Positions 8,664-48,400 of a DNA stretch of 63,824 bases are shown piece after piece. The DNA is from a virus (taxonomy: Duplodnaviria > Caudoviricetes), in the IMG/VR virus record IMGVR_UViG_3300048061_000822, positions 1-63,824 of that record, one strand, 5' to 3'. Every line of letters starts with the position of its first letter. Positions within the stretch are counted from its first letter, which is position 1. The position numbers were made by a program, and so were the translations under genes. Under the pieces are notes generated by a model. That model was not told the DNA's origin. It saw nothing but the letters and a program-made list of their open reading frames with translations, and made no database searches.

Positions 8664-9023
8664 TCAAGGCTTTGGTGACGTGTTGTTGCCAACCTTTTGG
8701 TATTCTTGGTATGGTTTATACTCTCGTGCGCTTGGCTTAACATCAATCATATAGCGAATCCGTCCCGAACTTTCGGCTAGAACTTTTTCTATTGATGAAG
8801 TTACCACTTTCATATCTTTTGTTTCTGTACTTATTTTTAAATATATTAATAAGTTAAAAACTAGGATTGCTAGAGATAAAAAGAATAACACCCATGTGAG
8901 TGTTTGCTTAGAATTAACTGCCTTTCCATCAATTCTAATATTCTTAATATCTCCCTTTTTTACTTCTGGAATTTCCAGTGTTATTTCATTGCCATCTTGG
9001 TATGTAATTTGGGTAGGTGACAT
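8664..9023 (-). CDS. Single-pass membrane protein
   Basis: Hydrophobic TLTWVLFFLSLAILVFNLLIYL segment. Confidence 0.6.
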   Translation of the reverse strand: MSPTQITYQDGNEITLEIPEVKKGDIKNIRIDGKAVNSKQTLTWVLFFLSLAILVFNLLIYLKISTETKDMKVVTSSIEKVLAESSGRIRYMIDVKPSAREYKPYQEYQKVGNNTSPKP

Positions 9024-9038
9024 TACATTATGCCCTTT

Positions 9039-9284
9039 CTATATATTTACAGCGTATTGATCTATTTTTAGACTTTTGCTAGGTTTGTAGTTTTTATTAT
9101 AAACTGCTTCAAGGTATTCAATTAGGGCATCATTGACCAAAGCAGCTACTGGTTTTTTTGTGACTTCAGAGAGTTTCGTAAGTCTTTTGTGGGTTTCCGT
9201 GGGAACCCGTGTAGATACAGCACAGAGAATTTCATTATTTTTCATTAATCTAGTTGTTTGTAATTGGGCGAAAGTGTCAGTCAC
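9039..9284 (-). CDS. Ribbon-helix-helix regulator (candidate repressor; start possibly 9245)
   Basis: VSTRVPTETHKRLTKLSEVTKKPVAALVNDALIEYL has the Arc/CopG pattern; divergent from the lytic operon. Confidence 0.65.
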   Translation of the reverse strand: MTDTFAQLQTTRLMKNNEILCAVSTRVPTETHKRLTKLSEVTKKPVAALVNDALIEYLEAVYNKNYKPSKSLKIDQYAVNI

Positions 9285-9393
9285 TTAACTGTTTTCTCTT
9301 CTCGTTTTACTTACTCCTTGCTGTTTATTCATATGAGACCACAAGGTATCATATCGTGTCAAAACTTTTTTTCGTTAATTGTTATTTTTCTTC

Positions 9394-9421
9394 TTGCTCT
9401 ATCGCATATGCGATACATAAT
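9394..9421 (+). promoter_or_regulatory. Rightward promoter with embedded perfect palindrome
   Basis: TTGCTC-[TATCGCATATGCGATA]-CATAAT; the 16-bp palindrome 9400-9415 fills the spacer. Confidence 0.6.
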
Positions 9422-9429
9422 CGCATCAA

Positions 9430-9678
9430 ATGATAACAACTAATAAGGAATTAAGTTTTCTAATGAAGGGTTCAGATGTGGTGAGGTATTTAGGTTTTTG
9501 TCCCACCACTGGATATAGAATCCTTAAACATTGGGAAAAAGAGGATGTTTTAACGCCAGTACTTTTGCCCGCACTTAAGGGTTTGCGCTACAGACGGGAC
9601 GAGGTGGAACAACTAGCTAAAAATAAAGAAAAGACTGAAACTGTGAAAAGTTTTTTAACTAACGAAAGGAAAAAATAA
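9430..9678 (+). CDS. Excisionase/MerR-like HTH protein
   Basis: LMKGSDVVRYLGFCPTTGYRILKHWEKE...LRYRRDEVEQL pattern. Confidence 0.6.
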   Translation: MITTNKELSFLMKGSDVVRYLGFCPTTGYRILKHWEKEDVLTPVLLPALKGLRYRRDEVEQLAKNKEKTETVKSFLTNERKK

Positions 9679-10323
9679 ATGGACATTGAAAAGATTGGTG
9701 CTCCAACTCCACCCAAGAGAGTTGGACAAAAACCCGGAAAAGGTGGGAACAAAATGGACTATGTGACCGCGAGGTTTTGCATGGACAGATTAGACCAAAG
9801 TGTAGGTCCACAGAATTGGAAAAATGAATACAAAGAAGTCGGCGGACACCTTATTTGCGGAGTTTCCGTAAAGTGTGATGGTGAATGGGTAACCAAATGG
9901 GACGTTGGTACCGAGTCGAATTTCGAAGCTGAGAAAGGACATTTCTCGGATGCTTTTAAAAGAGCATGTGTGCATTGGGGAATTGGCAGAGACCTTTATA
10001 AAGAGCCGACTGAGTCTTTCGTGAAGCAGGGGAAGGGGAAAAAAAGTGGGAATAGTGCCGTGGTAAGCACTGAACCTTCCCCTGTTTCCGTTTCAGAAGA
10101 AAAGGTAGAAACTGAATTGGTTGTAGATTCATGGGATTCAGTTCAGGTTCATTTTGGTAAGAATGCAGGAGTTCCATTAGGTGACCTAAAACCAAACCAA
10201 TTAGAGTGGTACCAAACTAAATGGTCGATAGGAGATAAACCGTCGGACGATGATTTATTACTCAGAAAGGCATTGGATAAGTCCATGAAAAAGGGGGGCA
10301 CGAAAGATGGCTTCGGAGGATGA
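9679..10323 (+). CDS. Rad52/Sak-family single-strand annealing protein
   Basis: YVTARFCMDRLD...GPQNW...KWDVG...EKG..SDAFKRACVHWGIGRDLY. Confidence 0.88.
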   Translation: MDIEKIGAPTPPKRVGQKPGKGGNKMDYVTARFCMDRLDQSVGPQNWKNEYKEVGGHLICGVSVKCDGEWVTKWDVGTESNFEAEKGHFSDAFKRACVHWGIGRDLYKEPTESFVKQGKGKKSGNSAVVSTEPSPVSVSEEKVETELVVDSWDSVQVHFGKNAGVPLGDLKPNQLEWYQTKWSIGDKPSDDDLLLRKALDKSMKKGGTKDGFGG

Positions 10324-11401
10324 ACGAGAAGGTTTGCCATCTGCGTCAGGTATTGAGCAAATGAAGCTCTGTCCTGGTAGTTGGAACTATCAGAAAATGT
10401 TTCCCTCTAGCGGAGGAAGTGATGCGAATGAAGGCACCATCAGGCATGACCTAATTGAACAGGTCATACGGGGGGACATAACATTGGATTCCATAGAGGA
10501 CGAACAACAACACGAATGCACCAAAAGGGCGTTAATGTTACTCGAAAAAGTTGAGCTAGAAGCAGGGGTCTCCAACCATTCCAACCAATGGTTGGAAAAA
10601 AGACTTTGGCTGAACCAAAATGAGGATAAGGTTTATTCCGCCAAATATGACCTTCTGCGGGAGTATGAGGGTGGCATATACCTTCTAGTGGATTGGAAGA
10701 CATTATATGGTGACCATACCCCTGCTCCTGATAATATTCAGTTGCTCGCTCAGGCGTTAGCGGTTTACAGAAATAGTGAGGGAATGACCAAAATGTACTG
10801 CTCATTAGTTGAGCCGTTCCCCTCCCCTTCTTTTAGCTTAGTAGAGTATTCAACCGAAAGGTTGGAACAACTAGAAAACCTAGTGACAACAATTGTTTCG
10901 GAGGCAAGCAAGGAAACCGCTCAAAAAGTTGTTGGGCTCAAGCAGTGCAAATTTTGCAATGGTTTAGCTCATTGCAATGAGGTCGCAACTGAAATTCGTG
11001 ATATTTCAGAAAAATCAGAAATTACGGATTTGAGCAAAGCACTAGAATTAGCACTTCTGGCAGATAAATGGGCAAGTGCAGTAAAATCTAGAGCAAAGGA
11101 GCATTTGGGCGATGGTAATGAATTGGAGGGTTGGAAGTTACGCTCAAGTGGGAAAGTAAAATCCATAAGTGACGCCAACCTTTGCGCTGAAAGACTCATG
11201 GACACCAACCAACTAAAATGGGCAGACTTACTGAAGACTACTAGTATTTCTATATCTAAGCTAATCAAAGTTTGGATGGAAAGTAGAAATGAAAGTGGCG
11301 CCACATTGAACCGTAAGGACGCGGTAGCAGAATTGGAACAAATCCTTGAAGGTGTAATTACCGAAAAACCTAAAGCGGAGGCGCTAGTTAAAGCGAAATG
11401 A
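10307..11401 (+). CDS. PD-(D/E)XK exonuclease (DUF2800/Cas4-like)
   Basis: PSAS...CPGS, EGT..H, YDL..VDWKT, QL..QA, CKFC.....C motifs; paired with the SSAP. Confidence 0.8.
   Translation: MASEDEREGLPSASGIEQMKLCPGSWNYQKMFPSSGGSDANEGTIRHDLIEQVIRGDITLDSIEDEQQHECTKRALMLLEKVELEAGVSNHSNQWLEKRLWLNQNEDKVYSAKYDLLREYEGGIYLLVDWKTLYGDHTPAPDNIQLLAQALAVYRNSEGMTKMYCSLVEPFPSPSFSLVEYSTERLEQLENLVTTIVSEASKETAQKVVGLKQCKFCNGLAHCNEVATEIRDISEKSEITDLSKALELALLADKWASAVKSRAKEHLGDGNELEGWKLRSSGKVKSISDANLCAERLMDTNQLKWADLLKTTSISISKLIKVWMESRNESGATLNRKDAVAELEQILEGVITEKPKAEALVKAK
10447..10466. promoter_or_regulatory. 20-bp palindromic motif copy, intragenic (TGACCTAA-TTGA-ACAGGTCA)
   Basis: Exact TGACC-N10-GGTCA. Confidence 0.55.
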
Positions 11402-11736
11402 GTGATGAAAAAGGGAGAAATTCTAAACTTCAAAATCAAAAAGAGAATACCATCACTAAACCAACTTCTCAGGTGGGGTCCATGGGAAAGGTTGAAGGAG
11501 AAGAAAGCGATGAACAAAGAAGTGGGCCTCGCCATCATGTCAGAATTAAAAGCCGTAGAGTCAGGCTCCTCGACATCGACAACCTCTATGGGGGAAGCAA
11601 GCACCTCATCGATTCGCTCAGGCTGTCAGGCGTTATTCCTGACGACGACCCCGCAAGCATCACCCTTCAAGTCACGGAAGAAAAAATCAAGGGCTACAAA
11701 AATGAGGAAACAGAAGTGGAGGTAAAATGTGTGTGA
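11398..11736 (+). CDS. RusA-like resolvase, catalytic portion
   Basis: RLLDIDNL...KHLIDSLRLSGVIPDDD; ATGA-coupled to the nuclease stop. Confidence 0.7.
   Translation: MSDEKGRNSKLQNQKENTITKPTSQVGSMGKVEGEESDEQRSGPRHHVRIKSRRVRLLDIDNLYGGSKHLIDSLRLSGVIPDDDPASITLQVTEEKIKGYKNEETEVEVKCV
11402..11725 (+). CDS. Overlapping ORF carrying a RusA-like N-terminal motif
   Basis: LNFKIKKRIPSLNQLLRWGPWERLKEKK resembles the PSLN N-terminus of phage RusA-like proteins. Confidence 0.55.
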   Translation: MMKKGEILNFKIKKRIPSLNQLLRWGPWERLKEKKAMNKEVGLAIMSELKAVESGSSTSTTSMGEASTSSIRSGCQALFLTTTPQASPFKSRKKKSRATKMRKQKWR

Positions 11737-12442
11737 AAGACAAAGATTTACTATCCGGACTTCTGACGAAATCGTCCGTAGGATTGAGGCTTTATCGAGC
11801 ATTTCGGGTGAGTCGAAGAATAGTGTGGCAAATGTTCTTCTTGCCATGCAATTGGGTGGCGTCACATGTGGCGCCACATCTGAAAAAGGTAAAGTGGGTG
11901 AGAATAATGAGGAAAGCGAGACTACTACTATGGTTGAGCATAACTCCACTTATAATTCTGAAAAGAAAAGTGGCGCCACATCGAAATCTAAAAACAAAAG
12001 GGTTTCCTCTCCCCCCACACCCCCCTCTTCTTCCCAAAAGAAAAAGGATATACTACGTATATCCCAAAAAGAAAAAGTTTCTTCTCAAATTGGGCATGGA
12101 AGAAAGCCAAAAGATTTCAATCAATGCTTGGAATATTTCAAGCAGAGACGGATTCCCGACGCTGAATCAAAATCGAGAGAGTTCTTCGATTTCTACGAAG
12201 CGAATGGATGGTTCCAAGGGAAAGGGAAGCCAATTCGAAAGTGGGGTTGCTGTCTCACCATTTGGATTTCAAACAACCCCTCATGGAAACCCGAAGAGAC
12301 GGAAGAATCAAGGGATGGTGCGAACTTGGAAGCTGTATTGGCATGGATGCAAAAGACGCATGTCGAGTGGTATGAAAAGTTTAAGGACGCTAAAAATATT
12401 AACGAAATAGACGGATTTTATATTGATGAATTTAGAAATTAA
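11729..12442 (+). CDS. Putative replication initiator
   Basis: GTG after GGAGGT; N-terminal RHH-like segment, SPPTPP linker, FFDFYEANGW...KPIRKW domain; directly before DnaB; contains internal repeats. Confidence 0.65.
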   Translation: MCERQRFTIRTSDEIVRRIEALSSISGESKNSVANVLLAMQLGGVTCGATSEKGKVGENNEESETTTMVEHNSTYNSEKKSGATSKSKNKRVSSPPTPPSSSQKKKDILRISQKEKVSSQIGHGRKPKDFNQCLEYFKQRRIPDAESKSREFFDFYEANGWFQGKGKPIRKWGCCLTIWISNNPSWKPEETEESRDGANLEAVLAWMQKTHVEWYEKFKDAKNINEIDGFYIDEFRN

Positions 12443-13706
12443 AAATTATGACACGGACATCGAAGCAGGGTTGCTTGGGTGCATTGGGAAAAATACAGAA
12501 AATTGGGCAGATGCCCTCGAACGTGGGTTCTCGCCAGAATGGTTCATGAATCCGCTACATTACCGAATTGCGGAGCAAATGCTGTCAGAAGACAAAAAAG
12601 GGAAAGAGGTGGATGATATTTCTATTGCTTTCTCAATGCCCGAGGAATCAAGAGCAGAAGTTATTGAAGCTTTCGACAGGGTTGAGACTACTGCACATTT
12701 CAACAAATTCTTAGAAGAAATAGAGGGTTTATGGCTCAAGCGAAAAACAATTGAAGCATGTCATGGAATTATTCAAATGGCGTCTGAAAGAGGGAGCCGT
12801 GCTTTGGATGTTGTTGAGAAAGGTGGAAGTGAATTTTCTCAGCTTTCCTTGAAGGAAAAATCAAAACTTAAAACGGGTGCGGAAGTTGTTCAAGCAGCAT
12901 GGGAAGGCATTCTCGAAAGACAGAAAGTGGGTGGCGTAAATGGAGTCCCAAGCGGAATTAAATCATTGGATAAGATGTGTTGTGGTTGGCAGAAAAACGA
13001 CCTAATTACGCTTGCGGCACGGACAAGCGTGGGTAAGACCGCATTTTCCATTGAAATGGCATTGGGGGCTTTGCGGGCAGGAAAGACGGTACAATTCTTT
13101 TCACTCGAAATGGTTAATGAATCTGTGATGGAGCGAATGCTCGCAAATGTCTCAGGAGTACCCGTAAGAGTCATGGTCGATAAGGTGATGACTGAGGGTC
13201 AAATAAAGGCAGTGGAGAAGGCGAGACAGTTCCTATCAGTCGCACCATTATTCATGGAGGATGCGGGAGATATGACAGTTTCCACTATTCGTGCTAAAGC
13301 TAGGAAATTAGCTAGAAAAGGATTGGATATGATTGTGGTCGATTACTGCCAAATTGTTAAACCGGAAGACTCTAAGATTTCAAGAGAGCAACAAGTATCA
13401 TCGATTACATGGGGTCTAAAAACACTAGCTAAGGAATTAAAAATTCCAGTAATTATGTTGAGTCAGGTAAACCGAAATGCGGACGGGACAAATGCATGCC
13501 CTAGACTTTCCGACTTAGCCGATTCCGATAAAGTGGGCAGAGATGCTGATCTAGTTCTGATGCTTTGGAAAAAAGACGATGGCTCAGAAACTAAAACTTT
13601 TATCGAAGTTGCAAAACAAAGAAATGGAAGACTTGGACCTATTGAGTTGGATTTCAAGGCTTCTTTACAAAAATTTGAGGAGAAAATTACTTCTTCTTTA
13701 AACTAA
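12423..13706 (+). CDS. dnaB: Replicative DnaB-family helicase
   Basis: AARTSVGKT, FFSLEM, VVDYCQ, LSQVNR, PRLSDL, AKQRNG. Confidence 0.93.
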   Translation: MMNLEIKNYDTDIEAGLLGCIGKNTENWADALERGFSPEWFMNPLHYRIAEQMLSEDKKGKEVDDISIAFSMPEESRAEVIEAFDRVETTAHFNKFLEEIEGLWLKRKTIEACHGIIQMASERGSRALDVVEKGGSEFSQLSLKEKSKLKTGAEVVQAAWEGILERQKVGGVNGVPSGIKSLDKMCCGWQKNDLITLAARTSVGKTAFSIEMALGALRAGKTVQFFSLEMVNESVMERMLANVSGVPVRVMVDKVMTEGQIKAVEKARQFLSVAPLFMEDAGDMTVSTIRAKARKLARKGLDMIVVDYCQIVKPEDSKISREQQVSSITWGLKTLAKELKIPVIMLSQVNRNADGTNACPRLSDLADSDKVGRDADLVLMLWKKDDGSETKTFIEVAKQRNGRLGPIELDFKASLQKFEEKITSSLN

Positions 13707-13726
13707 AACAATAAAACAATAATACT

Positions 13727-14113
13727 ATGAACTTAAGCAAGTTTACATTTATGGGTCGTCTAGTTGCAGACCCAGAGACAAAAAAGACGGAAAACGGACA
13801 GTTGACCAAGGTACGAGTTGCAGTAAATCGCAAAGTCGGAGGAGAAGACCAGGCATCTTTCTTTGCGGTCGAAGGATGGGATAAAGTAGCAGAACGCCTA
13901 GCCACATTAAGTAAGGGGCAACCCGCTTATTTTGAGGGTGAAATCTTCGTTCGTCAATGGGAAGCAAAGGATAAAAGTGGAAAAGTTATTCGGGATGATA
14001 ACGGAAAGCCTGTTATGCGCTCCAAGGATACTTACAAATGTTTCCAGATGAGATATTTGAGCACAAAATCGGAACAGACTCAGGAAGGTCTAGAGGAAGA
14101 TGCACCATGGTAA
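13727..14113 (+). CDS. ssb: Single-stranded DNA-binding protein
   Basis: GRLVADPE, VAVNR, LSKGQ..YFEG, acidic EEDAPW tail. Confidence 0.9.
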   Translation: MNLSKFTFMGRLVADPETKKTENGQLTKVRVAVNRKVGGEDQASFFAVEGWDKVAERLATLSKGQPAYFEGEIFVRQWEAKDKSGKVIRDDNGKPVMRSKDTYKCFQMRYLSTKSEQTQEGLEEDAPW

Positions 14114-28365: not shown

Positions 28366-29062
28366 TGCATATGTAAAATTCGATAAGGCAATGAAGGACT
28401 CGCTTGCTAAGTTCAATGCGACTGAGCAAAAAGGTATGCGTATTCGCTTTGTCGAGCAGGAACTTAAACCACTAGGTAAACGCCTACGACTCAATGATGA
28501 GGAGTGGACTAACTCAATTGGTTTCTGTGCAGATAAATCACTACTACCATCCGATAAGGATGAGCACTTCAATGCTTGGGCTGACAAGTGGAACTTGGGT
28601 ACATACGACCCTACGGATCCGGTTAAGAAGTCTAAGGCAAAGCCTGCCAAGCGTGGTAGTGCTCTTGATGACATCAAACTTGATGACTGCCCTGACCCTG
28701 AACCTGAAATCACTAAGCCTGACATTGAAGCAGATAAGTTCTGTAAGGAGATGCCCGACAGAATTGAAAGCCTTCCTATCACCACCAACACGGACAAGTG
28801 CCCTAGTGCCAAAAGCCAATGTGCTCCTCTTGATTACGCCGTGGAATCTAAACCTAAACCAAAGGACAAACCTATGCCAAAGACAAAGCAAGAACTACTC
28901 ACTGAGTTGCTCAGTTCATCTGACGGACTAAGCGAGCAGGAAGTTAAGAAGATATGTGTATCTACATTTTGTGACCTATTTAAAGAGGTCATAGATTCAG
29001 TGCAAACATCTGCCATGTGTATGCTTAATCAAATTCAAAAAGACGAAGATGATAAGCAGTAG
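28346..29062 (+). CDS. Hypothetical protein
   Basis: 238 aa with low-complexity linker. Confidence 0.6.
   Translation: MPLQKTDAYVKFDKAMKDSLAKFNATEQKGMRIRFVEQELKPLGKRLRLNDEEWTNSIGFCADKSLLPSDKDEHFNAWADKWNLGTYDPTDPVKKSKAKPAKRGSALDDIKLDDCPDPEPEITKPDIEADKFCKEMPDRIESLPITTNTDKCPSAKSQCAPLDYAVESKPKPKDKPMPKTKQELLTELLSSSDGLSEQEVKKICVSTFCDLFKEVIDSVQTSAMCMLNQIQKDEDDKQ
28972..28991. promoter_or_regulatory. 20-bp palindromic motif copy, intragenic (TGACCTAT-TTAA-AGAGGTCA)
   Basis: Exact TGACC-N10-GGTCA, about 57 bp before dcm. Confidence 0.55.
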
Positions 29063-30449
29063 AGTAATTAGTGCAGTCGATATGTTCTGTGGGAGTGGTG
29101 GTACTTCCGCAGGACTATTCGATGCAGCAGAGGAATTGGGTATGCATGCAGACATCACTGCCATCAATCATTGGGATGTCGCTATTGCCACGCATACTGC
29201 AAGTCACAAGTACGCAAATCATATTTGTGACTCCATGGCTAATGTTAATCCAAAGACATTGATGCCTGAGGGTGATAACCTGGATATTCTTGTCGCATCT
29301 CCTGAGTGTACACATTTCAGCAGAGCGGCGGGTGGTCGTCCAAAGTCTGATCAGTCACGAGCAGGAGCATGGCATGTCACTCAATTTGCACAGGAGTTGC
29401 GACCAACTGCAATCATTGTGGAAAATGTTGAGGAGTTCATGAGATGGGGTCCACTTGATGACAACATGGATGTTATCAAGGAGAAGGAAGGTGAAATGTT
29501 TCATGCATGGGTGGCATCTCTAAAAGCTATGGGCTATGAAGTTGATTGGCGTGTGCTTAATTGTGCAGACTATGGTGATGTAACCACTAGGCGTAGGCTA
29601 TTCGTTATGGCGAGGCGTGATGGGCGTAGGGTAAAATGGCCCGTACCATCCCATACCAAGTCTCCGGATTTAATCTGTGACCAAAAGTGGCGTGCCGCTC
29701 GTGAGATTATTGATTGGGATAATCATGGTAAGTCTATATTCGACCGGAAGAAACCACTTAGCAAGACCACCATGCGTAGGATACAAGCTGGCATTGAGAA
29801 GTTCTGTCCTGAGGTTAGCGAGTTCTTGGTCAAGATAAATGGATCAGATGAGATTAGTGCCAAGCATTCACCTAAAAGTGTGGATGAACCATTACGGACT
29901 ATTACCGCAGGAGGTAAACACTTTGCATTAGTAAAGACTAACTTCCTGATAAACATGGTAGGTACTTCGGATAGTGGTATCAAGTCTAGCACTAAGAGTG
30001 TGGATGAACCTCTCGCCACCATACATGGTGGCAATAAACACGCAATGATTGAACTAAAACCTCTCGTTGTTGAAATAGATAACTATTCAAATCCAGGTCA
30101 TTGCTGTCGTGAGATTGATAAGCCAATCAGTACAGTTACGGGTAAGGGTAGACATTGCCTAGTCCAACCATTCCTTCAGTCATACTATGGGACAGGTACA
30201 AATGTTAGTTCAGTTGATGAACCCGTCAGGACATTAACCACTAAGCAACGACACGCACTTGTCGAGCCGACTGTTGAGCATGGTAAGCTCGATATCAAAT
30301 TTCGCATGCTAACCAATGAAGAGTTAGCAAAAGCCCATGGTATGGATGACTTCACATTCTATGGGACAGTAGCAGAAGTCACTAAACAAATCGGTAATAG
30401 TGTACCTCGCAATATGGCGAAAGCACTATGCCACGCACAACTCAGTTAA
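29049..30449 (+). CDS. dcm: C5-cytosine DNA methyltransferase
   Basis: DMFCGSGG, SPECTHFS, ENV, TTRRRLF, QIGNSV; repeated SVDEPLxTI segments. Confidence 0.92.
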   Translation: MISSRVISAVDMFCGSGGTSAGLFDAAEELGMHADITAINHWDVAIATHTASHKYANHICDSMANVNPKTLMPEGDNLDILVASPECTHFSRAAGGRPKSDQSRAGAWHVTQFAQELRPTAIIVENVEEFMRWGPLDDNMDVIKEKEGEMFHAWVASLKAMGYEVDWRVLNCADYGDVTTRRRLFVMARRDGRRVKWPVPSHTKSPDLICDQKWRAAREIIDWDNHGKSIFDRKKPLSKTTMRRIQAGIEKFCPEVSEFLVKINGSDEISAKHSPKSVDEPLRTITAGGKHFALVKTNFLINMVGTSDSGIKSSTKSVDEPLATIHGGNKHAMIELKPLVVEIDNYSNPGHCCREIDKPISTVTGKGRHCLVQPFLQSYYGTGTNVSSVDEPVRTLTTKQRHALVEPTVEHGKLDIKFRMLTNEELAKAHGMDDFTFYGTVAEVTKQIGNSVPRNMAKALCHAQLS

Positions 30450-34132: not shown

Positions 34133-34386
34133 ATAAGCAAGTTGTTATGGTGTTTGACAATAGCCGTACACTCGAACTTTCAAGGGAAATGACCAAGCAT
34201 ACTTGGATGAATCCAGTTCGTGCCAAGACAGGTTCTGACCTACTCGTTCTTATAGAGGGAGGGTGTCAATGCATCATGGTTACTAGGGATAAGTTTGATA
34301 AAGCAATAAGGAAAAGAAATGCAGAGAAAAGAATGAAAGAACTAAGTGAAAATCTTTTTATTCTGTTTGATGAGGTGAACGCATGA
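34129..34386 (+). CDS. Hypothetical protein
   Basis: ATGA-coupled. Confidence 0.5.
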   Translation: MNKQVVMVFDNSRTLELSREMTKHTWMNPVRAKTGSDLLVLIEGGCQCIMVTRDKFDKAIRKRNAEKRMKELSENLFILFDEVNA

Positions 34387-35261
34387 AAGAATACTATACA
34401 GGTATAGATGACCCTAAGCGCGCTTACTTACTTAATGAACATAAGAATATTGAGTTAGGCTTCATGCTCTCTACCAATCGCATAAAGAGTAGGAAGAAAG
34501 AAATACGCAACAAGGGTAAATGGATGCTCGATTCAGGTGCATTCACTCAGATTCTACAGCATGGCAAGTTTGTTATTTCTGAAGATAAATATGTGGAAAT
34601 CATCAAGCGACATGAAGATAAAAACCTAGTATGTGCAGTCACTCAGGACTATATGTGCGAGCCGTTTATCTTAGAGAAGACTGGCAAGACTGTTCGTGAG
34701 CATATCCGAATGACCGTTCAGAGATACTTTAATATCCTAAGAAAGATGCGTAAGGCAGGGTGCAGGACAATGCTACTTCCCGTACTGCAAGGCATAGATA
34801 CTCAGGACTACATTGAATGCTTGGATTTGTATGAAGAGGGATGGTGGAAGCTACAAAATACACACGGATTAATGTACAGGTTTGGCGGTGAAGAATTTGC
34901 CCGACCACATCGTATAGGATTTGGATCCATGTGTAAGCGTAACGGAAATCCAGGTGAGGTTGAGGCTATTATCGATCAGATGGAGTATCGACTAGCTAAC
35001 TTTCATATCCATCTATTTGGATTCAAAACTACCGGACTTAACTTCAAGTGGGAGATTGCATCAAGGATACATTCTGCTGACTCCTTTGCGTATAGCATGA
35101 GAGATAGAAAATACTATGCACATGAAGCACCTGAAATAAATGTCAGAACAAATGATTCACGGGCTAAACTTGCTATCGAGCATGGTAGAAAGATGGCAAA
35201 ACTCGTAGAAAAAACACAAACAACACTAAACCTAAACCTAGATTATGGAGTAACAGTATAA
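34383..35261 (+). CDS. TGT/DpdA-like base-exchange transglycosylase
   Basis: LDSGAF, DYMCEP, PVLQG, GFGS.CKR, HLFG.K, SADS: TGT-fold catalytic motifs. Confidence 0.72.
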   Translation: MKEYYTGIDDPKRAYLLNEHKNIELGFMLSTNRIKSRKKEIRNKGKWMLDSGAFTQILQHGKFVISEDKYVEIIKRHEDKNLVCAVTQDYMCEPFILEKTGKTVREHIRMTVQRYFNILRKMRKAGCRTMLLPVLQGIDTQDYIECLDLYEEGWWKLQNTHGLMYRFGGEEFARPHRIGFGSMCKRNGNPGEVEAIIDQMEYRLANFHIHLFGFKTTGLNFKWEIASRIHSADSFAYSMRDRKYYAHEAPEINVRTNDSRAKLAIEHGRKMAKLVEKTQTTLNLNLDYGVTV

Positions 35262-35953: not shown

Positions 35954-38449
35954 ATGGCTAAAGAAGAAAAACCAAAACCAAATGTCTACATAACCCCAAC
36001 GGGTTCACTGAGAATAAACCTAGAGGGTCTGACCGACTACTCACTTCGGTGGAAGTTACAGAAAGCACATGGTGCTACCGCGATGTCACTCACCACTACC
36101 CGCTCAGATCGGGAGTTGCTTACCAAGATGCTTGATGATTATGCATCCGGTAATCCTCACTACCTTATATCCGATGATGCAGCAGAGGCGATATCCGAAG
36201 CAGTTGACACATTAGGTCATATTCCTCCCCCTATCCTACCCCTTACGCCCTACGAGAAGTTGGGTGCCATTGATGACATTCAATATCTTGTCGCAAGTAA
36301 GACTGTGGGTAAGAAAGGTGATAAGGAATCTATCCATCTCACTAGAGGTTGTAGCTATAAAATTCTAGTCAGGGCATTGAGCTATCAAAAGTCATTTACT
36401 AGAAACAAAATGCACTACTCACCGAGGACGGGTACTACATATACCAAGCTACATGACTGTCAGCTTGAGGGTAAGGATACAGTGTTCAATGTCTATGATG
36501 ACAATAGTGTCAATTGGTCATTCAGAGAACATGCTGATAATACCTTTGAGCTATCCGATCGGGATGTATGGAAGTACTTTGACGAGCCGGATATATCAAC
36601 TATCAAGGAGACCAACCCTGATGATTATGAGCGTAATGCTGAGATGCTTGACTGGATGGAAGATATCGGTGGGTTCAAGTATTTCCCTGGTCAGCGTGAG
36701 TACCTCTCTCGTTTCTCCATCCTTGACTCAGGTGGTTGTTGTATTGAGACGGGTGGCGGTAAGACCTTAGCGGCATTCACCTTGTACTATCTCAAGCAGG
36801 CAAAGCGTGCGTGCTTTATTGTACCCAAGGGTACTAGTGTGGGTGAGGAGGGCAAAAAGCAGAAGTTCGACAATGCACCTCAATGGTTCAAGGAAGCTGA
36901 GAAGTTTGCACCTGATACTCCTGTATACAAATTATTCTCCAAGGAGGATTACTACAACCTACTCGATGAGAATGGCAAGTTACCCACGGGTATTTTCATC
37001 ACATATCCATCTGCCATGTTCAATAATGATAAAGCATTTGAGAATATGCCCAAGACCAAGAAGTGGAAGGAACTAGATGGCGAGGAATTATTCTGCAAGA
37101 AATATAATATTCCATTCAAGCCTGAGTATGGCATTCGATATACCACAGGTATTGGTGACGAGATAAATGGTTTCCATTGTATTGCCACTCCATCCCTTTC
37201 CACTTTGTGCAAGAGTCAATTCGATATGGTCATGCTCGATGAGGCACACCTTATCTGTAATCCAAATACCAATACCACTCAGGGTATTCTTCGTATGCAA
37301 CCAAGGTACAGGTATGCAATGACTGCCACTCCTATTACAAATATGTGTTACAATATATTTCCAATCATTGGTTGGTTGGCAGTTGATAACTGGAGGTATG
37401 AGCGTAGGCGTAACAATCGATGGCACTATGGACTAGAAGAGTTGGGTAGATTCAAATCTGCTCATGTCTCCAAGGAGCGTGACCTAACTGCTGAGGCAGA
37501 TGCTCACAAGGCTGGCGAGAACCCTCCATCACCCAAGGACAGTCCTGCTATTTCTCAGGTACCCAAGTTACTTTACTTACTACGCAAAACAATAGCTTAT
37601 ATGTCCAAGCAGGATATCAATCCTGACATGGTTAAGTGTAACCTAAATGTTGTTAAAGTCCCAATGGGTGAGCAACAACATGGGTTATACTCTCATTACT
37701 TACAGCGTAAGAATATTCCCATTGAGAATCCATTAGCCAAGGCAATGACTCAACAGACATATCTCAGAGGTGTATGCTCTGACCCTGCCACTGTTTCCTA
37801 CAATGATGTGGAGGGTAAGATTGTTACATCAAATTATAATTCCAAGACGGTATCCATTCTTAATCTGATATGCGACAATGTTCACAAGGGTGAACAGGTA
37901 GTGTTTGTTTCTGCCCGAAATGGTCAGATCGATGAGATGAAGAGAAGACTAGAGGATTCAGATATCAAATGCTCTATGATTCGTGGTGATGTCAAGGACC
38001 AGTCGGGTCAGGCATCAATGTTCAAGGCAGGCATGACTCAGGTGCTACTACTCAATATCTATTGTGCCGAGGCACATAGCTTTGGTAACTGTTCTCAGCT
38101 TATCATCGGTGCCCTTGAATGGAGTTATGGTAAGTATGCACAGGCTTGCGGTAGGATTTACAGACTAGATAGTCCTAAGGATTGCACCGTCAATGTTGTC
38201 CTTCATGAAAACACCATTGAGGAGCTACTCTTTGAGAAAGTAGCAAGCAAGGAAGATGGTGCAACTGTTTGCCTCAAGGGTGAGCATGGCGACCCCGAGC
38301 ACAAGATAGTGGATCCGGGTGAAATCCTTGCCGAACACTTTCAGAATTTTACCTCCAAAGGTCAGCACGATGTGATGAATGAGGAGGAATGTGAAAACCA
38401 ATGGCCTGAGTTACAGGCAAAACTAAAAGGAGATACAATACTATGCTAA
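35954..38449 (+). CDS. SNF2-family helicase/ATPase
   Basis: ETGGGKT, LDEAH, MTATP, QACGRIYR, TIEE. Confidence 0.88.
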   Translation: MAKEEKPKPNVYITPTGSLRINLEGLTDYSLRWKLQKAHGATAMSLTTTRSDRELLTKMLDDYASGNPHYLISDDAAEAISEAVDTLGHIPPPILPLTPYEKLGAIDDIQYLVASKTVGKKGDKESIHLTRGCSYKILVRALSYQKSFTRNKMHYSPRTGTTYTKLHDCQLEGKDTVFNVYDDNSVNWSFREHADNTFELSDRDVWKYFDEPDISTIKETNPDDYERNAEMLDWMEDIGGFKYFPGQREYLSRFSILDSGGCCIETGGGKTLAAFTLYYLKQAKRACFIVPKGTSVGEEGKKQKFDNAPQWFKEAEKFAPDTPVYKLFSKEDYYNLLDENGKLPTGIFITYPSAMFNNDKAFENMPKTKKWKELDGEELFCKKYNIPFKPEYGIRYTTGIGDEINGFHCIATPSLSTLCKSQFDMVMLDEAHLICNPNTNTTQGILRMQPRYRYAMTATPITNMCYNIFPIIGWLAVDNWRYERRRNNRWHYGLEELGRFKSAHVSKERDLTAEADAHKAGENPPSPKDSPAISQVPKLLYLLRKTIAYMSKQDINPDMVKCNLNVVKVPMGEQQHGLYSHYLQRKNIPIENPLAKAMTQQTYLRGVCSDPATVSYNDVEGKIVTSNYNSKTVSILNLICDNVHKGEQVVFVSARNGQIDEMKRRLEDSDIKCSMIRGDVKDQSGQASMFKAGMTQVLLLNIYCAEAHSFGNCSQLIIGALEWSYGKYAQACGRIYRLDSPKDCTVNVVLHENTIEELLFEKVASKEDGATVCLKGEHGDPEHKIVDPGEILAEHFQNFTSKGQHDVMNEEECENQWPELQAKLKGDTILC

Positions 38450-42416: not shown

Positions 42417-45400
42417 TTAAAATGCTAGGGATTGTTTTACTATATCATCGTATGACATCGGTTTTGTTGATGCACTATCCGTGACTATCATTGGTAAAGG
42501 ATTTGCTTTTAATTCAATTGAATCTAATAAAATGTGTTCAAATTTTTTGTGCATTGATTCTGCACGTCTTAAAGAATTAGCTTGTTCTGCAGTAAAGACA
42601 TTTAGAACTTTACTCCACTCATCATCTGATAACGTATATCTAGATAATCCACTTTTAAGAGTTCTCCTCTTGTATGATTGTAGTACTGATTTCTCAGGGT
42701 CTGCGTCACCTCGTTCGATTGCGGCTAAGACTGCCTGACTGTATGCTTCCTGAAATAATTTTTCATCATTTGCATATGCAGCTTGTTCCATTTTTCTAAT
42801 ATGGACTGAAAATGGAGTCGCCCTAAATCCTCCTGATACTGCTGGTCTTCTCTCAATCTCAAGTGTTGACAATGCGGCACGGACTTTATTTCGATTTCCA
42901 ATCATGTCGGACACTCTTCTTTCAATGGTATCAATACCCATCAAATTCGTAATCGCCTGCTGGGTTTGAAGAAATCCATTACCGCCCATGGAGTAAAGAA
43001 GTGGTCTGATAACCAAGTTATAATCCAATGACCTACTATGGTATGCGTTTTTAAACGCATCCATCGTATTAATGATTGTAGCCATGCCCAGTATTCTAGT
43101 ATCTAAAGAGAATCCTCGCTGAGATGCATATGGGTCTACTTGGGATACCATACTAGCAACAAAGTCTCCTGCGATACCTCCAATATTTCCTGCACGAGAA
43201 AGTCTCTCAATCATTGCAAGAGCATTTCCTTTTGCATCACCTTCAATAAAAGGTCCAAAGATTGGAATCATGGTTGACAGAGGAGCAGGACGAAGAGAAG
43301 AAGTTTTTCCTAATATCTCCTCATCATATTCATCCATTCCAAAAGTAAATGCCATACCAACAGGGGTGAGCCATAATCCCATTACGCTTAATGCTCTTAA
43401 TGATGCCTTGAGTGTAATCTCACTTGTCTGCTCATCCCTGAATGCCTCATTTACTTGATTAACCTTAGAGAATGACCAAGAAAGTAGAGGTGCAATATAC
43501 TTACCCCATTCATTTGTATACCAAAATGCTGACCTTGATGTAAAGCCACCCTCCATTGCAACATTATGTAATCCAATTGAACTAACTGCGAGTGCTTGGT
43601 CTTGGGTGAGTGCCAAAGTTTCACCTTTTGACTTTCTTTCAATATATTGATGAGCAAGGTCGCTAATTGTGCCTAACCCTCTTAATTCAATTTGATTATT
43701 AATGTAATTCCACATCGACTCACTTCCAAGAATCACTTCTCCTGTTGCAGATTTTGTCTCAAGTCCAAGATTCTCCGCAGTGACTTGATAAGTCGCAGGG
43801 ATTGGTTGACCCGTTCTCTTTGCAGATTGCTCAATGAAATCCGCAGCTTGCTTCACAAGCATATCGACTGCCTGTACGGTGCCTACACCAATCGAGTGAT
43901 TAGCTAAGTTACCTAAGTAGGTAAAAATATTAAGGAACATCGTACGCAATGAAAAAGGTGCGTAGGTCTGCCCCTCTTTTACGGGCGTATATTGTAAAGT
44001 ATTTTTTAATTGCCTTAATCCATCCATCTTAAATATTTCAAGTAAGCTCGCTTGCTTGGATGCATTAGCACCTAAATTTAATCTGTAATTATTATAACCC
44101 ACTTCATGCTCAGATGTATGAAAGTAAAAATCATTTAATTGTTTTGCATATTCACTGGTCAATCTGAGTTGTGAACCCATTCTTTCAAGCAGGGGACCAA
44201 ATACATTTCCAAATACATTTTTTAATGCAGTGGAAAATGCTTTTCTTGAAAATTTATTACCCCCTTTGTAAACCAAAGGTATATCAAAAAGAGATAGTAA
44301 ATTAGTCAGTCCACTTTTTGTTTGATTAAGTATAAGAAATGCATTCGTGCCAAGAAGTTCAAGAGCAACCTTATGGTCTTTGTATGGTCCAATATCTCCT
44401 TCTAGATGAGCTTTTAAGCTTTTTTCTGCAGTGTGGAAATTCTTTAACTGCCTAGCTGCAGCTTCAAGATTCTTTAATTTTTCCATACCTGTCTCACCAG
44501 GAATGTCTTCCATTCCCGCAGCTAGGTCTGCCGCTCTTTTTCTAAAACTACGCTTAAAAGTAAGTGGTACAGAGCTTGATGTCTTAACACCAAGTGCATC
44601 TGCAATATCGGTCAATTTCTCCCTCTTTTCATTAAGTTCTGCCTTTAGTTTGTCCTTTAATGCTGTGAGTTTTTCTGCATTTTTACCATAAATTCCATTG
44701 CCCAATATTTGAGCCAATTGAATGGGCATATCAATCTCAGTGTATGATTCATACTGAAGGAATTCCACGGGCATAATTGTCTGAGTAGATCGACTATCCA
44801 TCAATCTATGTGCCAATGCGTATGCCTTATTATCCATATTGCTTCCTGAATCACTTACTGCCTCCTCAAGATTTCTAAATCTTTTGTAAAATGCATTGGC
44901 TACATTATACTTGAACTTTAAATAATCAGTTCGTTTTTTATTATGAGGTACACTTTCATATAAAATATCAATAAATGATTTAAACTTTTGATGACCTTGT
45001 CCGGTGGATTGTGCCCATGCTTTTCTTAAATATGATTTAGGAATCTTTCCATCTTTTGAAAGTGGTGCAGGAATAAAATTAATTATTGATGTATCAAAAA
45101 TGTATGGGCGAATAAATCTGTCCAGGGTGGAATCAGTAATACCATCTTCAAAGTATGCATCTATAGCTTCCTCTTTTCTTTTTTCAGTTAGTGAATCATT
45201 TTGGTATGCTTTTTTAACATCTTCCCATCCCTCGAGATTGCCCAAACCCGAACTTAATTCATTAACAATACCTAGTACATAATTGGATCTAATTTTTCTG
45301 CCTGATGTTTGGTATCCTCTTTTTATTGCGTCTCGGGAAAGACCTTCAAATTCACCTTCAACAATTCTACTTTCCACTAATACTCTATTGGCACCTTTGT

Positions 45401-48400
45401 CCTGACTTACCTTAACATTATATTCCTGTGCTAAATCCAAGAAGAAACCTGATATAATCTTAGACTGTTCTAGTAGTTTTTGAAGAGTATCTCTAGCTTC
45501 ACTTTCACTAGTAATTGCATCTTTGTTTTTAACCAAGGACATTGCTTTATTAAATGTACCCTCGTCAAATTTTACTTTTTCATTTATTTGGGGTTGGTCT
45601 TCATTCCACTTTAATACCTTGTCATAAAAATCCAAAAACATCCGGTAATCAGTGTATCCCCATGCTTTAGTGGCATTGATTAACCTTCTATTCCATAGCT
45701 TACCAAACCTTCTTGCTCTGGATACATGCTTTCTATATGCGATATCAAATCGGAGTTCCAATTGTGCTATTTCCTTACCTAATCTCCCCTGTTCAGCAAA
45801 CATTGCCTGAGCCGACTTCAACCACCACATATTTAATCTACCCTGTGCTTCTTTGTGCTGTGGTTGGAGGGTAGCTGCATCTGCAGCTAAGGTTGCCTGT
45901 CTTATATATTGAAACTCAGCAGTACCTTGAATCTTTTCATTATTCTTATCTGTTAAATACTCCCTGTTTTTCTGCCTTGATATTACAAATTCATTTAGGT
46001 TTTCAGGTATAAGTTTATTATTAAGTTTAATATCAATGTAATCGATTTCGTACTTATCTCCCACCTTGGACATTACAGGAAACTTTAATCCGTCTACAAT
46101 GTGAGTAATCGGACTATGGCCCAAGTAGGTCTGCATTCTGTTCGAGTTCATATCATAACTCTTAATCAGTGCTAAGTACACTTGGTTATCCCTAAGCAAA
46201 TCTTCTGACTCCTGTACTTTCTCCAGGTACTTAATTCGCTTATCTATAAATGCATTTAATATCCCCTTCTCTTCTTCCTTGCCTGACAATAAAGATTCAG
46301 ATGGATTCTTTCCTTTGATTACTTTTAACTGATCAATTGTTGACTTGCTCAGACTTTCTAGCTTTGCCAATGTAGACCTTTTCCCTTGGAAATCACTACT
46401 TGTGGATAGCTTTGCTTCATACACGCTTTTCTTATTATTATGTATGGCAGATGCTATTACTATGTATTCGTTTTTAGAAACTTTTTGTCCGACACTTATT
46501 ATATTATATATGTCATTATAGGATAATTCCTGTATGTCATCTTTTTTACTGACCTGTAATACTAGGTCAGATAAGAATGATGGACTGAGCTTTCTAATAT
46601 TTCCCATAAGCTCAGTAAACTCATTTGATACCCTGTCCTCTCCAGTGATTTCTTTATATGCCTGTAATGTAGCCGAACTACCTGTGTCAATCTCACCATT
46701 GTCCTCAAGTATTTCCTGTCTTGTTTCTTGAGCGTAGTATGCAACTTGATTACTTATCTTATCCCCTTGAGTTGCACGATTAAATATAATCGCAGGGTCA
46801 GGTTTAATTTCACTTTCAAGTGTAAGAATTTCTGAAGCTAAACTATTGGGCTGATTTTCATCCAACTGATCCATGTTATTGGAAAGTGCTTCTTTTGCTT
46901 GCTTCTTTCTTTTTTCAATCAATCCAAGTGCGAGCACTCTTGCTTCCTGAACCATACCCTCATTGTTTTTCAATGCTTCTAGGGTTATGCTTTCTATATT
47001 CTGATAAGACTTTGTCTTTTCTTTTATATATTGAATAGGTGTCTTGCCGGATGATAAATATATCCTGTACACATCTTCCACGCTTAAGTCTGGAGTTTTT
47101 AAAATTCTACGAATATCCTCCATCGCTTGTGATGTGGATGCTAACTCCTCACTCCTGGAGGCTACTTGCATCTTTGCAAGTGCTATTTCATTTGCTTCTC
47201 TATTTAAAGATTGAGTAGTATTTGGATTTTCCTCTTCCGCATATACATCCTCCATTAACTGACCCTTGCCAAAATATTTCTTTATCCCCTTATCCATGGC
47301 AAGGGTTTGAAATTCAATTCTCTTATCTAAAGGTGTAGCATTATGCAAAGCATGGATATTATCAATCTCTCTTAAAGCAGTCTGGAATGGTATATCTGTA
47401 TGCTCTGCTATGTTATTAGCCAACTGAACATCTAAAGACCTTTCAGTTCCTTCCCATGATATATCTCTAGCTATAAGCCTGACTAGATATTTATTGCTTA
47501 CATTTGTAACCCTGACAATCTCTGGTTTTTCTTCCTGTTCTTCAATTGTTTCTTCACTCTCTTTTAATTTACCAAAGTCAAAAGTTAATTGATCTGACAT
47601 ATTGGAGGGAAGTAGGTCTCCTTTTTCATATGCCTCAATGGTGTTTTCATTTACCCACTTTTCAGAGTCGCCCAAATTTATTAAGTTATATGTATTGTCA
47701 CCATCTACCTTAACAATCGGTTGACCATTATCACCTTTGACCAATATGCCTAATCTACTAGGTACATTTTTAAATCTGATAATATTTCTTAGGTCATCTT
47801 TATCAGTTGTTTGATATGGTTCGTTGAATAAATTCGTGATTGTATATTCGCCCCCCGATTTTGTTACCTTTAGATTTGTGCGAGTCTCTCTCCTTACTCC
47901 ATCTAGTTCATCCTGCATTAATAAACGCTCACCATTTTGTAGGTTTTGTGCGAGCCGTTCATCAGGGATGGTGATGGTCATGAATTGCTCATTACGCTTT
48001 TCTTCTCTACCTAAATCATAATGTCGACTTTCAGCACCCTCTTCTAATTGAGGTTTTATATTTAAATACTTACCAAGTATTGCAGGCATAGAGCCATATG
48101 CATTAATAATTCCTTGAGTTTTTACACCATCGCTACCTACATAAGCATCATAGACTGAGCTAGGAGAACTTGAGACTATTGGATAAATTACATCCCCTCT
48201 TGTAAATACAACCTTATTAATTCTGTTAAGTGCAAGATACCTAATCAATGCCTTCATGTTGGCTAACTGATATGCATCTAGTAAAATATCATCTTTTACC
48301 AAATGTGTATTTTGCGCATTAAAGTCTTCAATAATCTGCTCGATACTTTCACCATTAGGATTCTTAAAAACAGTTTCTCCTCCAACATCTTTAATCCAGT

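Follow-up and report, generated by a model that had tools for sequence, protein, structure and literature searches.

Overlapping reading frames carry the two halves of a RusA-like resolvase in a family of phage genes

How can one small enzyme be read from two frames of the same DNA? The question is raised by positions 11398-11736 of the virus record IMGVR_UViG_3300048061_000822 (Duplodnaviria; Caudoviricetes), the whole of which, 63,824 nucleotides (nt) long with ~39% G+C, we call the window. Here two almost fully coextensive open reading frames (ORFs), frame A (11402..11725, +; 107 amino acids, aa) and frame B (11398..11736, +; 112 aa), resemble the N-terminal and the C-terminal half, respectively, of a RusA-like Holliday junction resolvase. 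An original prediction, made from the sequence, offered two options: two co-encoded polypeptides that assemble one enzyme, or a non-canonical −1 frameshift that joins the halves. Both options are still alive after our analysis, with a lean toward the first and the frameshift less favoured. We put at roughly 0.58 the probability that the two overlapping genes produce a two-chain RusA-like resolvase.

Frame B lies one base behind frame A, in the −1 frame. As the original prediction had it, each frame has its own start at the stop codon of the upstream gene (TGA, 11399-11401). Within this start region (11398..11407, +) the ATG of B at 11398 overlaps the TGA as ATGA, and A starts 4–7 nt past that ATG, at GTG 11402 or ATG 11405. 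A runs to a TAA at 11723-11725 and B to a TGA at 11734-11736, so that both frames do stay open for more than 100 codons. Their translations also read as had been described. Frame A gives an N-terminal strand, a PSLN motif and a helix (...IKKRIPSLNQLLRWGPWERLKEKKAMNKEVGLAIMSEL...), followed by Ser/Thr-rich and then Lys/Arg-rich sequence. Frame B begins with a hydrophilic head and continues into the catalytic half (HVRIKSRRVRLLDIDNLYGG...IPDDD...).

Structure prediction divides each product into a folded and a disordered part. The N-half of the RusA-like fold in frame A (11402..11560, +) would comprise strand β1 (~residues 6-14), PSLN (11450-11461) and helix α1 (residues 27-53); AlphaFold2 places a confident helix at 27-53 after the PSLN turn, with predicted confidence (pLDDT) of 75-91 over residues 11-50. 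The remainder of A, its tail (11561..11722, +), is Ser/Thr-rich then Lys/Arg-rich, has low pLDDT and is predicted to be disordered. In frame B the order is reversed. The hydrophilic head (11398..11523, +) is predicted to be disordered, with pLDDT <50 for residues 1-41, and the first invariant alignment column appears only at R45/V48. The catalytic C-half (11524..11733, +) follows with β2 (46-54), D59-x-D61-N-L (11572-11586), K68 (11599-11601), α2 (60-77), D82-D84 (11641-11649), β3 and β4; AlphaFold2 gives a strand at 46-54, a helix at 60-77 and strands at 88-96 and 104-111.

Homology to a single protein family is split between the two frames. We built a hidden Markov model (HMM) from single-frame relatives and ran it on the 576 window ORFs of at least 40 aa. 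It matched frame B with 68.4 bits (E 1.4e-20) and frame A with 14.1 bits (E 0.0011), A7-44 aligning to HMM positions 4-41; the next ORF reached E 0.31. Comparison of profiles by hhalign matched the A family to the N-part of the single-frame family over A6-49 (probability 93.2%, E 2.9e-7) and the B family to its C-part over B43-102 (E 1.7e-23). Because the N-half matches A and the C-half matches B, with the same single-frame family in both cases, the halves of one family sit in two frames. The homology of frame A, on which the original prediction had made its case depend, is thus present in both comparisons.

The connection to RusA itself comes mainly through frame B. Pfam RusA (PF05866) matched B with 15.5 bits and E 0.028, under the 22.8 cut-off, and frame A alone gave no RusA match. 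PHROG 34, annotated as 'RusA-like Holliday junction resolvase', matched B at E 2e-5. Among single-frame relatives, L067 passes the Pfam cut-off with 23.5 bits, and RusA was found at E <0.1 in four of ten tested. The B model aligned to residues 52-117 of Escherichia coli RusA (1q8r_A) with Z 4.4 and a root-mean-square deviation of 2.8 Å over 64 residues at 20% identity. The structural score of 1q8r_A (VIA-align wide) ties with those of unrelated β-α-β folds (4-OT, MIF), and the fold test is therefore consistent with RusA without being decisive. A sequence search of the PDB returned no RusA, and Foldseek with the B model returned no match at E <=0.001. D59, D61, D83 and K68 are invariant in 21/21 two-frame sequences, and the same motif is invariant in 20 single-frame relatives. 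Residue equivalence to the E. coli enzyme, whose conserved acidic catalytic residues we take to be D70, D72 and D91, is drawn from the motif pattern and the 52-117 alignment range.

The two-frame arrangement is broad and old. Six related viral contigs with 62-76% identity have both frames open end to end, and a metagenome scan added further relatives down to ~40% identity. A first set, from searches based on B, contained 22 distinct sequences with PSLN, from close and mid-distance relatives. All 22 have PSLN in the +1 frame relative to D-x-DNL, an open frame A, and a frame B open from upstream of A's first ATG; A's stop precedes B's by 11-26 nt in 21 of them. A second set came from a scan of viral contigs with ten of the proteins found by the N-half profile described below; it returned 80 loci, 79 of them with the motif pair, and 62 distinct sequences. 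In 62/62 the −1 frame holds the catalytic motif, mostly DPDNLxPKY, at a distance of 110 or 113 nt from PSLN. The two sets combine to 78 distinct two-frame sequences, a number that describes how common the split is within the family rather than among all RusA-like genes, the loci having been fetched by family-specific patterns. The original prediction had asked whether relatives keep the dual-open arrangement or show one in-frame gene instead; in these 78 sequences, close and distant, the two-frame state is kept. A tree built from the catalytic half places all 21 two-frame rows on one side of a branch (support 93/85) and the single-frame relatives on the other; a single change suffices in 92% of bootstrap trees.

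As a protein query against a set of 5.8 billion proteins, frame A gave no match at E <=0.001; an exhaustive profile search later found the family. A profile of the A N-half, run against 1.84 billion protein representatives, gave 170 matches. The best 150 of the 170 include 114 A-type ORFs that extend 70 residues or more beyond PSLN and lack an in-frame catalytic motif, 26 shorter A-type ORFs, three proteins with a late switch to a B-type C-terminal end, four without a PSLN-like motif by the pattern used, and one true single-frame protein, which is unrelated; two more pattern matches were spurious. No fused descendant is among these best 150, and a search of the 5.8-billion protein set likewise found no fused single-frame form with an A-type N-half. 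Frame B is represented in public protein predictions by 21 clusters of 84-112 aa. The three late-switch chimeras (P0024, P0098 and P0123) have an A-type N-half and a Ser/Thr-rich middle, then a B-type C-terminus (...IIPEDDP...EVSQEKVK...), with the frame changing late, past the catalytic motif; assembly indels or damaged gene copies may account for them. In bacterial genomes we found one marginal locus (L085) and no prophage copy in a cultured host.

Selection switches from one frame to the other in mid-gene. We compared the synonymous share of differences among 13 marine-clade sequences without indels. Over 11414-11518 this share is 0.17-0.46 in A and 0.01-0.04 in B; over 11549-11668 it is 0.08-0.25 in A and 0.30-0.49 in B, which places the crossover at 11519-11548. 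The ratio of nonsynonymous to synonymous polymorphism (pN/pS) is ~0.21 for A5-44 and 0.23 for B54-111. The other-frame readings of the same bases give 1.9 for the B head and 0.86 for the A tail, so neither of these segments is conserved as amino-acid sequence, and the A tail is free of purifying selection at that level. Synonymous divergence is lower in the B half (0.46) than in the upstream gene (0.63) or the A half (0.62), as expected if a second frame adds some constraint.

Where the two halves meet, one stretch of DNA belongs to both. In this dual-coded zone (11524..11560, +) the end of A's helix α1 and the loop and β2 of B come from the same bases. Homology-supported A extends to residue 49 (nt 11548) and homology-supported B begins at residue 43 (nt 11524), so that the two overlap, and the AlphaFold2 helix A27-53 and strand B46-54 both fall at ~nt 11534-11560, bearing out the original observation that the A helix ends on the nucleotides that also encode the first B strand. 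In 21 sequences drawn from all clades, the residues A44, S47 and L49 in frame A and R45, V48 and I50 in frame B are invariant, along with P17, S18, L19, N20 and K34 in A (21/21 two-frame sequences) and D59, D61, N62, L63, G65, G66, K68 and D83 in B. Even the codons are fixed in B: R45 is always CGC, V48 always GTC and I50 always ATT. A change to GTT or ATC would leave the B protein unaltered without putting a stop in A, and the fixed codons therefore point to constraint from frame A. From these patterns, around 11524-11560 both frames are probably read for function. Because helix and strand share their bases, a single −1 shift cannot keep both elements.

Both frames also stay open. In ordinary window genes the +1 frame contains 6-8 stops per 100 codons and the +2 frame 10-14, and the third forward frame at the locus has the usual stop density. 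Given window codon usage, B would be open by chance over A1-45 with a probability of 0.0065-0.023, and A over B47-112 with one of ~0.0005. Eight representatives of different clades, each with its own locus codon usage, gave 0.018-0.155 for B over the A part and 0.00075-0.325 for A over the B part; with synonymous sites nearly saturated between the clades, these values jointly amount to a very small probability. Codon choice is biased as well. NNY codons of the B half favour C, which yields Thr, Ser, Pro or Ala in A, and the A half avoids T at third positions even where it would be harmless, both in 11/11 representatives with modest single p-values. Such a bias exceeds stop avoidance and fits translated passenger segments that are kept polar.

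The B head and the A tail look like passenger sequence of this kind. Since both ORFs begin close to the 5' end and A generally extends to where the next gene starts, these segments would have to remain free of stops and polar. The A tail carries a net charge of +9 to +16 in 21/21 sequences. Electrostatic pairing of this basic tail with an acidic B head was considered and rejected: the B head is near neutral, at −4 to +4. In 3/62 loci of the second set (L105, L109 and L115) frame A ends 36-41 codons beyond the P of PSLN, immediately past the helix, and has no tail; in 5/62 B has a stop within A's first strand region, followed by an ATG in the L110-type loci examined. Passenger parts are therefore usual, not obligatory. 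In a freshwater-like clade (L045-L054 and many of L099-L163) the first ~20 residues of B, M..LPAGYVEV.KGVYERRD, are conserved upstream of the A start, in part coinciding with A's Shine-Dalgarno (SD)-like motif and ATG.

Both frames keep their own start codons. We compared the starts of 77 distinct loci. All 77 offer an ATG to frame A, accompanied in 33/77 by an SD-like 4-mer (background 0.13); for frame B an ATG is present in 73/77, in 59 of them before the ATG of A and in 14 after it. For the majority of marine relatives, a 7-nt indel puts the ATGA start in frame A, with the B ATG 14 nt downstream; the indel thus swaps the owner of ATGA, and the other frame always keeps an ATG of its own within 14 nt. 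In the freshwater-like clade B starts right past the upstream stop and A follows 46-49 nt later, behind a conserved AAAGGAG-type motif inside B.

Do the two halves fit together? The original prediction had suggested folding the products jointly. We co-folded A1-56 with B40-112, each with its alignment, and obtained a score of 0.72 against 0.01 for the best of three controls, passing a mark that 58/80 solved complexes and 2/110 mismatched pairs reach. Runs agreed in at least 97% of contacts, and the partner pLDDT was at least 80. In the model A6-14 pairs with B104-111, and PSLN touches G66 in the DNLYGG loop. The pass may reflect likeness to solved RusA structures, and halves of split genes tend to pass; the modelled complex shows complementary halves, and is not evidence of separate chains.

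A mechanism may be proposed from these parts. Initiation in frame A would yield the N-half, with β1, PSLN and a complete helix α1, plus a disordered and strongly basic tail, and initiation in frame B would yield a disordered head plus the catalytic half, with β2, D-x-DNL, K, α2, DDD, β3 and β4. The two chains would associate by pairing of A's β1 with B's last strand, rebuilding the RusA-like fold. By analogy with RusA, a dimer of such A-B pairs could act on branched DNA in the recombination and replication module of the phage.

The foremost alternative is programmed, non-canonical −1 recoding, in which translation starts in A and shifts between a Lys-Lys site and ~11540 to make a fused RusA-like chain with a shortened α1, and unshifted A is possibly a second, regulatory protein. 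We consider it possible, though doubtful. The layout, with the N-domain in frame 0 and the C-domain in −1, is that of IS3 OrfAB or dnaX, and one chain would satisfy the co-fold no less than two. Between PSLN and β2, frame A contains a slippery X XXY YYZ heptamer in 25/78 sequences; 24 of the 25 are A AAA AAG at Lys-Lys codons. The other 53, including the window, have none: the window reads GAG AAG AAA GCG, and the original prediction was right to see no canonical slip site in it. No stimulatory element emerged either. The downstream consensus RNA structure from RNAalifold over 13 sequences reaches only −3.73 kcal/mol, the window's own RNA folds no better than shuffles (z +0.74), and an Rfam search over 9000-14000 found no match, although a weak or novel element could still exist. 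A search for a tRNA gene that might drive recoding found none. Slippage or editing of the transcript was also set aside: there is no conserved homopolymer, and the RNA-library contigs X21 (11192-11593) and X22 (11530-11709) have 0 gaps, with the limit that contigs can miss rare variants or be DNA.

The product of such a shift poses further difficulties. A fused chain would have 37 residues from the Asn of PSLN to D59, against ~48-55 in single-frame relatives, which makes it at least 11 residues shorter than any of them. It could not hold both the helix end (A44, S47, L49) and β2 (R45, V48, I50). Recoding also gives no reason for a B that is open upstream with its own ATG, nor for an A that is open downstream, and the searches described above returned no fused single-frame descendant with an A-type N-half. 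Our lean to co-encoded chains follows from B's own start (upstream of A's in 59/73), from the dual constraint at 11524-11560, and from the lack of a conserved slip site, RNA structure or fused form.

A second alternative, which we judge improbable, holds that A and B are independent proteins with no shared fold, B alone being the nuclease and A a small basic regulator or DNA-binding accessory derived from the old N-half. Both ORFs do seem startable on their own, all catalytic-motif residues lie in B, and the A tail is strongly basic throughout. Yet the N-half signature (PSLN, the W/F position and K34) is invariant and under purifying selection, and in the co-fold A's β1 completes the B sheet and PSLN touches the DNLYGG loop; B alone would lack one edge strand and the covering helix.

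Although a single-base deletion in a single-frame gene would give such a picture in one genome, an artefact or decay, whether an assembly indel or a recently frameshifted pseudogene, is very improbable, since 78 distinct sequences from many samples share the two-frame state, purifying selection acts on each half in the frame that encodes it, the motif spacing of 110-122 nt against 150-174 nt in single-frame genes is not a one-base difference, and contigs of an independent seawater DNA run have no gap and no differing letter over 11138-11518 and 11498-12028. The indel near 11520-11560 for which the original prediction had wanted reads checked is thus absent from the DNA run, as it is from RNA-library contigs X21 and X22.

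Several observations weigh against a two-chain enzyme and keep our confidence in it limited. The A AAA AAG heptamer, at 24/78, is somewhat above a rough chance expectation, and the 3/62 loci in which A stops right past the helix have the layout of a classical −1 frameshift site. The co-fold is equally compatible with a fused chain. SD-like motifs at the first ATG of B (11/73) equal the background, and few occur at any gene in the window and its marine relatives, which makes start-site arguments soft there. Within-gene permutation of synonymous codons, a conservative null that already contains the bias in question, gave a weak 0.17 and 0.12 for the two open frames in the window alone. The split model alone does not explain why A is open almost to the end of B, its stop lying within 30 nt of B's in 36/62. 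The gap-free contigs rule out no more than an assembly indel and an edit at consensus level, for contigs drop rare variants and RNA libraries may carry DNA; stretches that lack RNA-library cover are uninformative. Finally, we infer translation of both ORFs, binding of the chains and junction cleavage by the complex.

The genes around the two-frame ORFs form a phage recombination and replication module. Upstream lie a Rad52-like annealase (9679-10323) and, directly before the two frames, a DUF2800 protein (10307-11401); downstream lie gene 3 (11729-12442), which encodes a 237-aa protein whose N-terminus is ribbon-helix-helix-like by eye, and DnaB (12423-13706). The junction to gene 3 (11718..11731, +) packs GGAGG (11718-11722), the TAA of A (11723-11725), an ATG at 11727 in an alternative frame of gene 3 and the GTG of gene 3 itself (11729), and its sequence is fully conserved across six aligned sequences. 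An antisense ORF of 211 aa (10969-11604, −), which spans the boundary between the DUF2800 gene and the RusA-like gene, is probably a chance ORF: it is anywhere between 57 and 657 nt long in the 11 sequences compared.

Gene 3 may have a similar double reading. It also holds a second near full-length ORF in the +1 frame (11727-12410, +; 227 aa), with its ATG at 11727 just past GGAGG. The stop-to-stop span of this frame, 192-276 codons, is open in 9/9 complete marine-clade relatives, and in the window the frame runs for 227 codons from its ATG. The probability of such an open frame by chance is <=0.0002 under window codon usage and 0.005 by permutation. At 11906-11965 the synonymous share is 0.73 in the alternative frame versus 0.18, from only 22 differences, and the alternative frame there encodes a hydrophobic stretch with basic flanks.

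Elsewhere, the window encodes a large terminase subunit, a DpdA homologue (34383-35261, +; E 1.9e-27), a C5 cytosine methylase (29049-30449, +) and an SNF2-type helicase (35954-38449, +); the last three in combination suggest that the phage DNA may be modified. One ORF of 5397 codons occupies 42417-58610 (−), with more large ORFs on the same strand before and after it. A GenBank phage search for close genomes returned as its sole match 70 bases of an unrelated Fusobacterium phage.

If the two-chain reading is right, nature has here divided one protein fold between two overlapping frames and maintained the division over long evolutionary time. We give even odds to the fuller claim, that a small enzyme domain is obligatorily built from two polypeptides of the same DNA, with ~25-40 shared bases and open, polar passengers, in an old arrangement that occurs widely, in at least 78 DNA sequences and 114 protein clusters, and that annotation has missed because gene callers keep one ORF per pair. 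B is listed as 'hypothetical protein', and A was found only by profile search. Such a family would be a clean model for the origin and persistence of overlapping genes and for how much sequence can serve two proteins. Should the halves be joined by recoding instead, the frameshift signal would be of an unknown kind. A search of article full texts found no paper on a two-frame or frameshifted RusA; the sole mention was in PMC10885494, whose passages on it cite a 1991 ruvC paper and no programmed shift.

Among known systems, E. coli RusA (PDB 1Q8R) is likewise a small phage-borne nuclease with the order strand, P-S-x-N, helix, strand, D-x-D-N-L, helix, DD and two strands. It is one chain of ~120 residues, read in one frame and forming a homodimer, whereas the halves here lie in two overlapping frames in all 78 distinct sequences, and the two-frame family has motifs of its own, D-x-DNL-Y-G-G or DPDNLxPKY. 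The nearest sequence relatives of both halves are single-frame 'DNLYGG' RusA-like viral proteins (for example L006, L013 and L067), which differ in using one frame and in separating PSLN from D-x-DN by 150-174 nt, compared with 110-122 nt in the two-frame genes.

The −1 programmed frameshift fusions of IS3 OrfA/OrfAB and dnaX tau/gamma place an N-part in frame 0 and a C-part in frame −1, as here, and share the A AAA AAG found in part of the family. Unlike them, the two-frame family lacks a conserved slip site or stimulator, the overlap spans the whole gene rather than a few dozen bases, and B has its own upstream start. In phage lambda, Rz and Rz1 are an embedded overlapping gene pair whose products work together. 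The present locus resembles that pair in that one ORF is embedded in another of a different frame and both have a start of their own, and the two products would likewise make up one functional unit; like an embedded pair, it also shows purifying selection on each product, on the N-half of A and the C-half of B, with both frames kept open. The difference is that Rz and Rz1 are two different proteins, while A and B would be complementary halves of one small domain, each with a disordered passenger.

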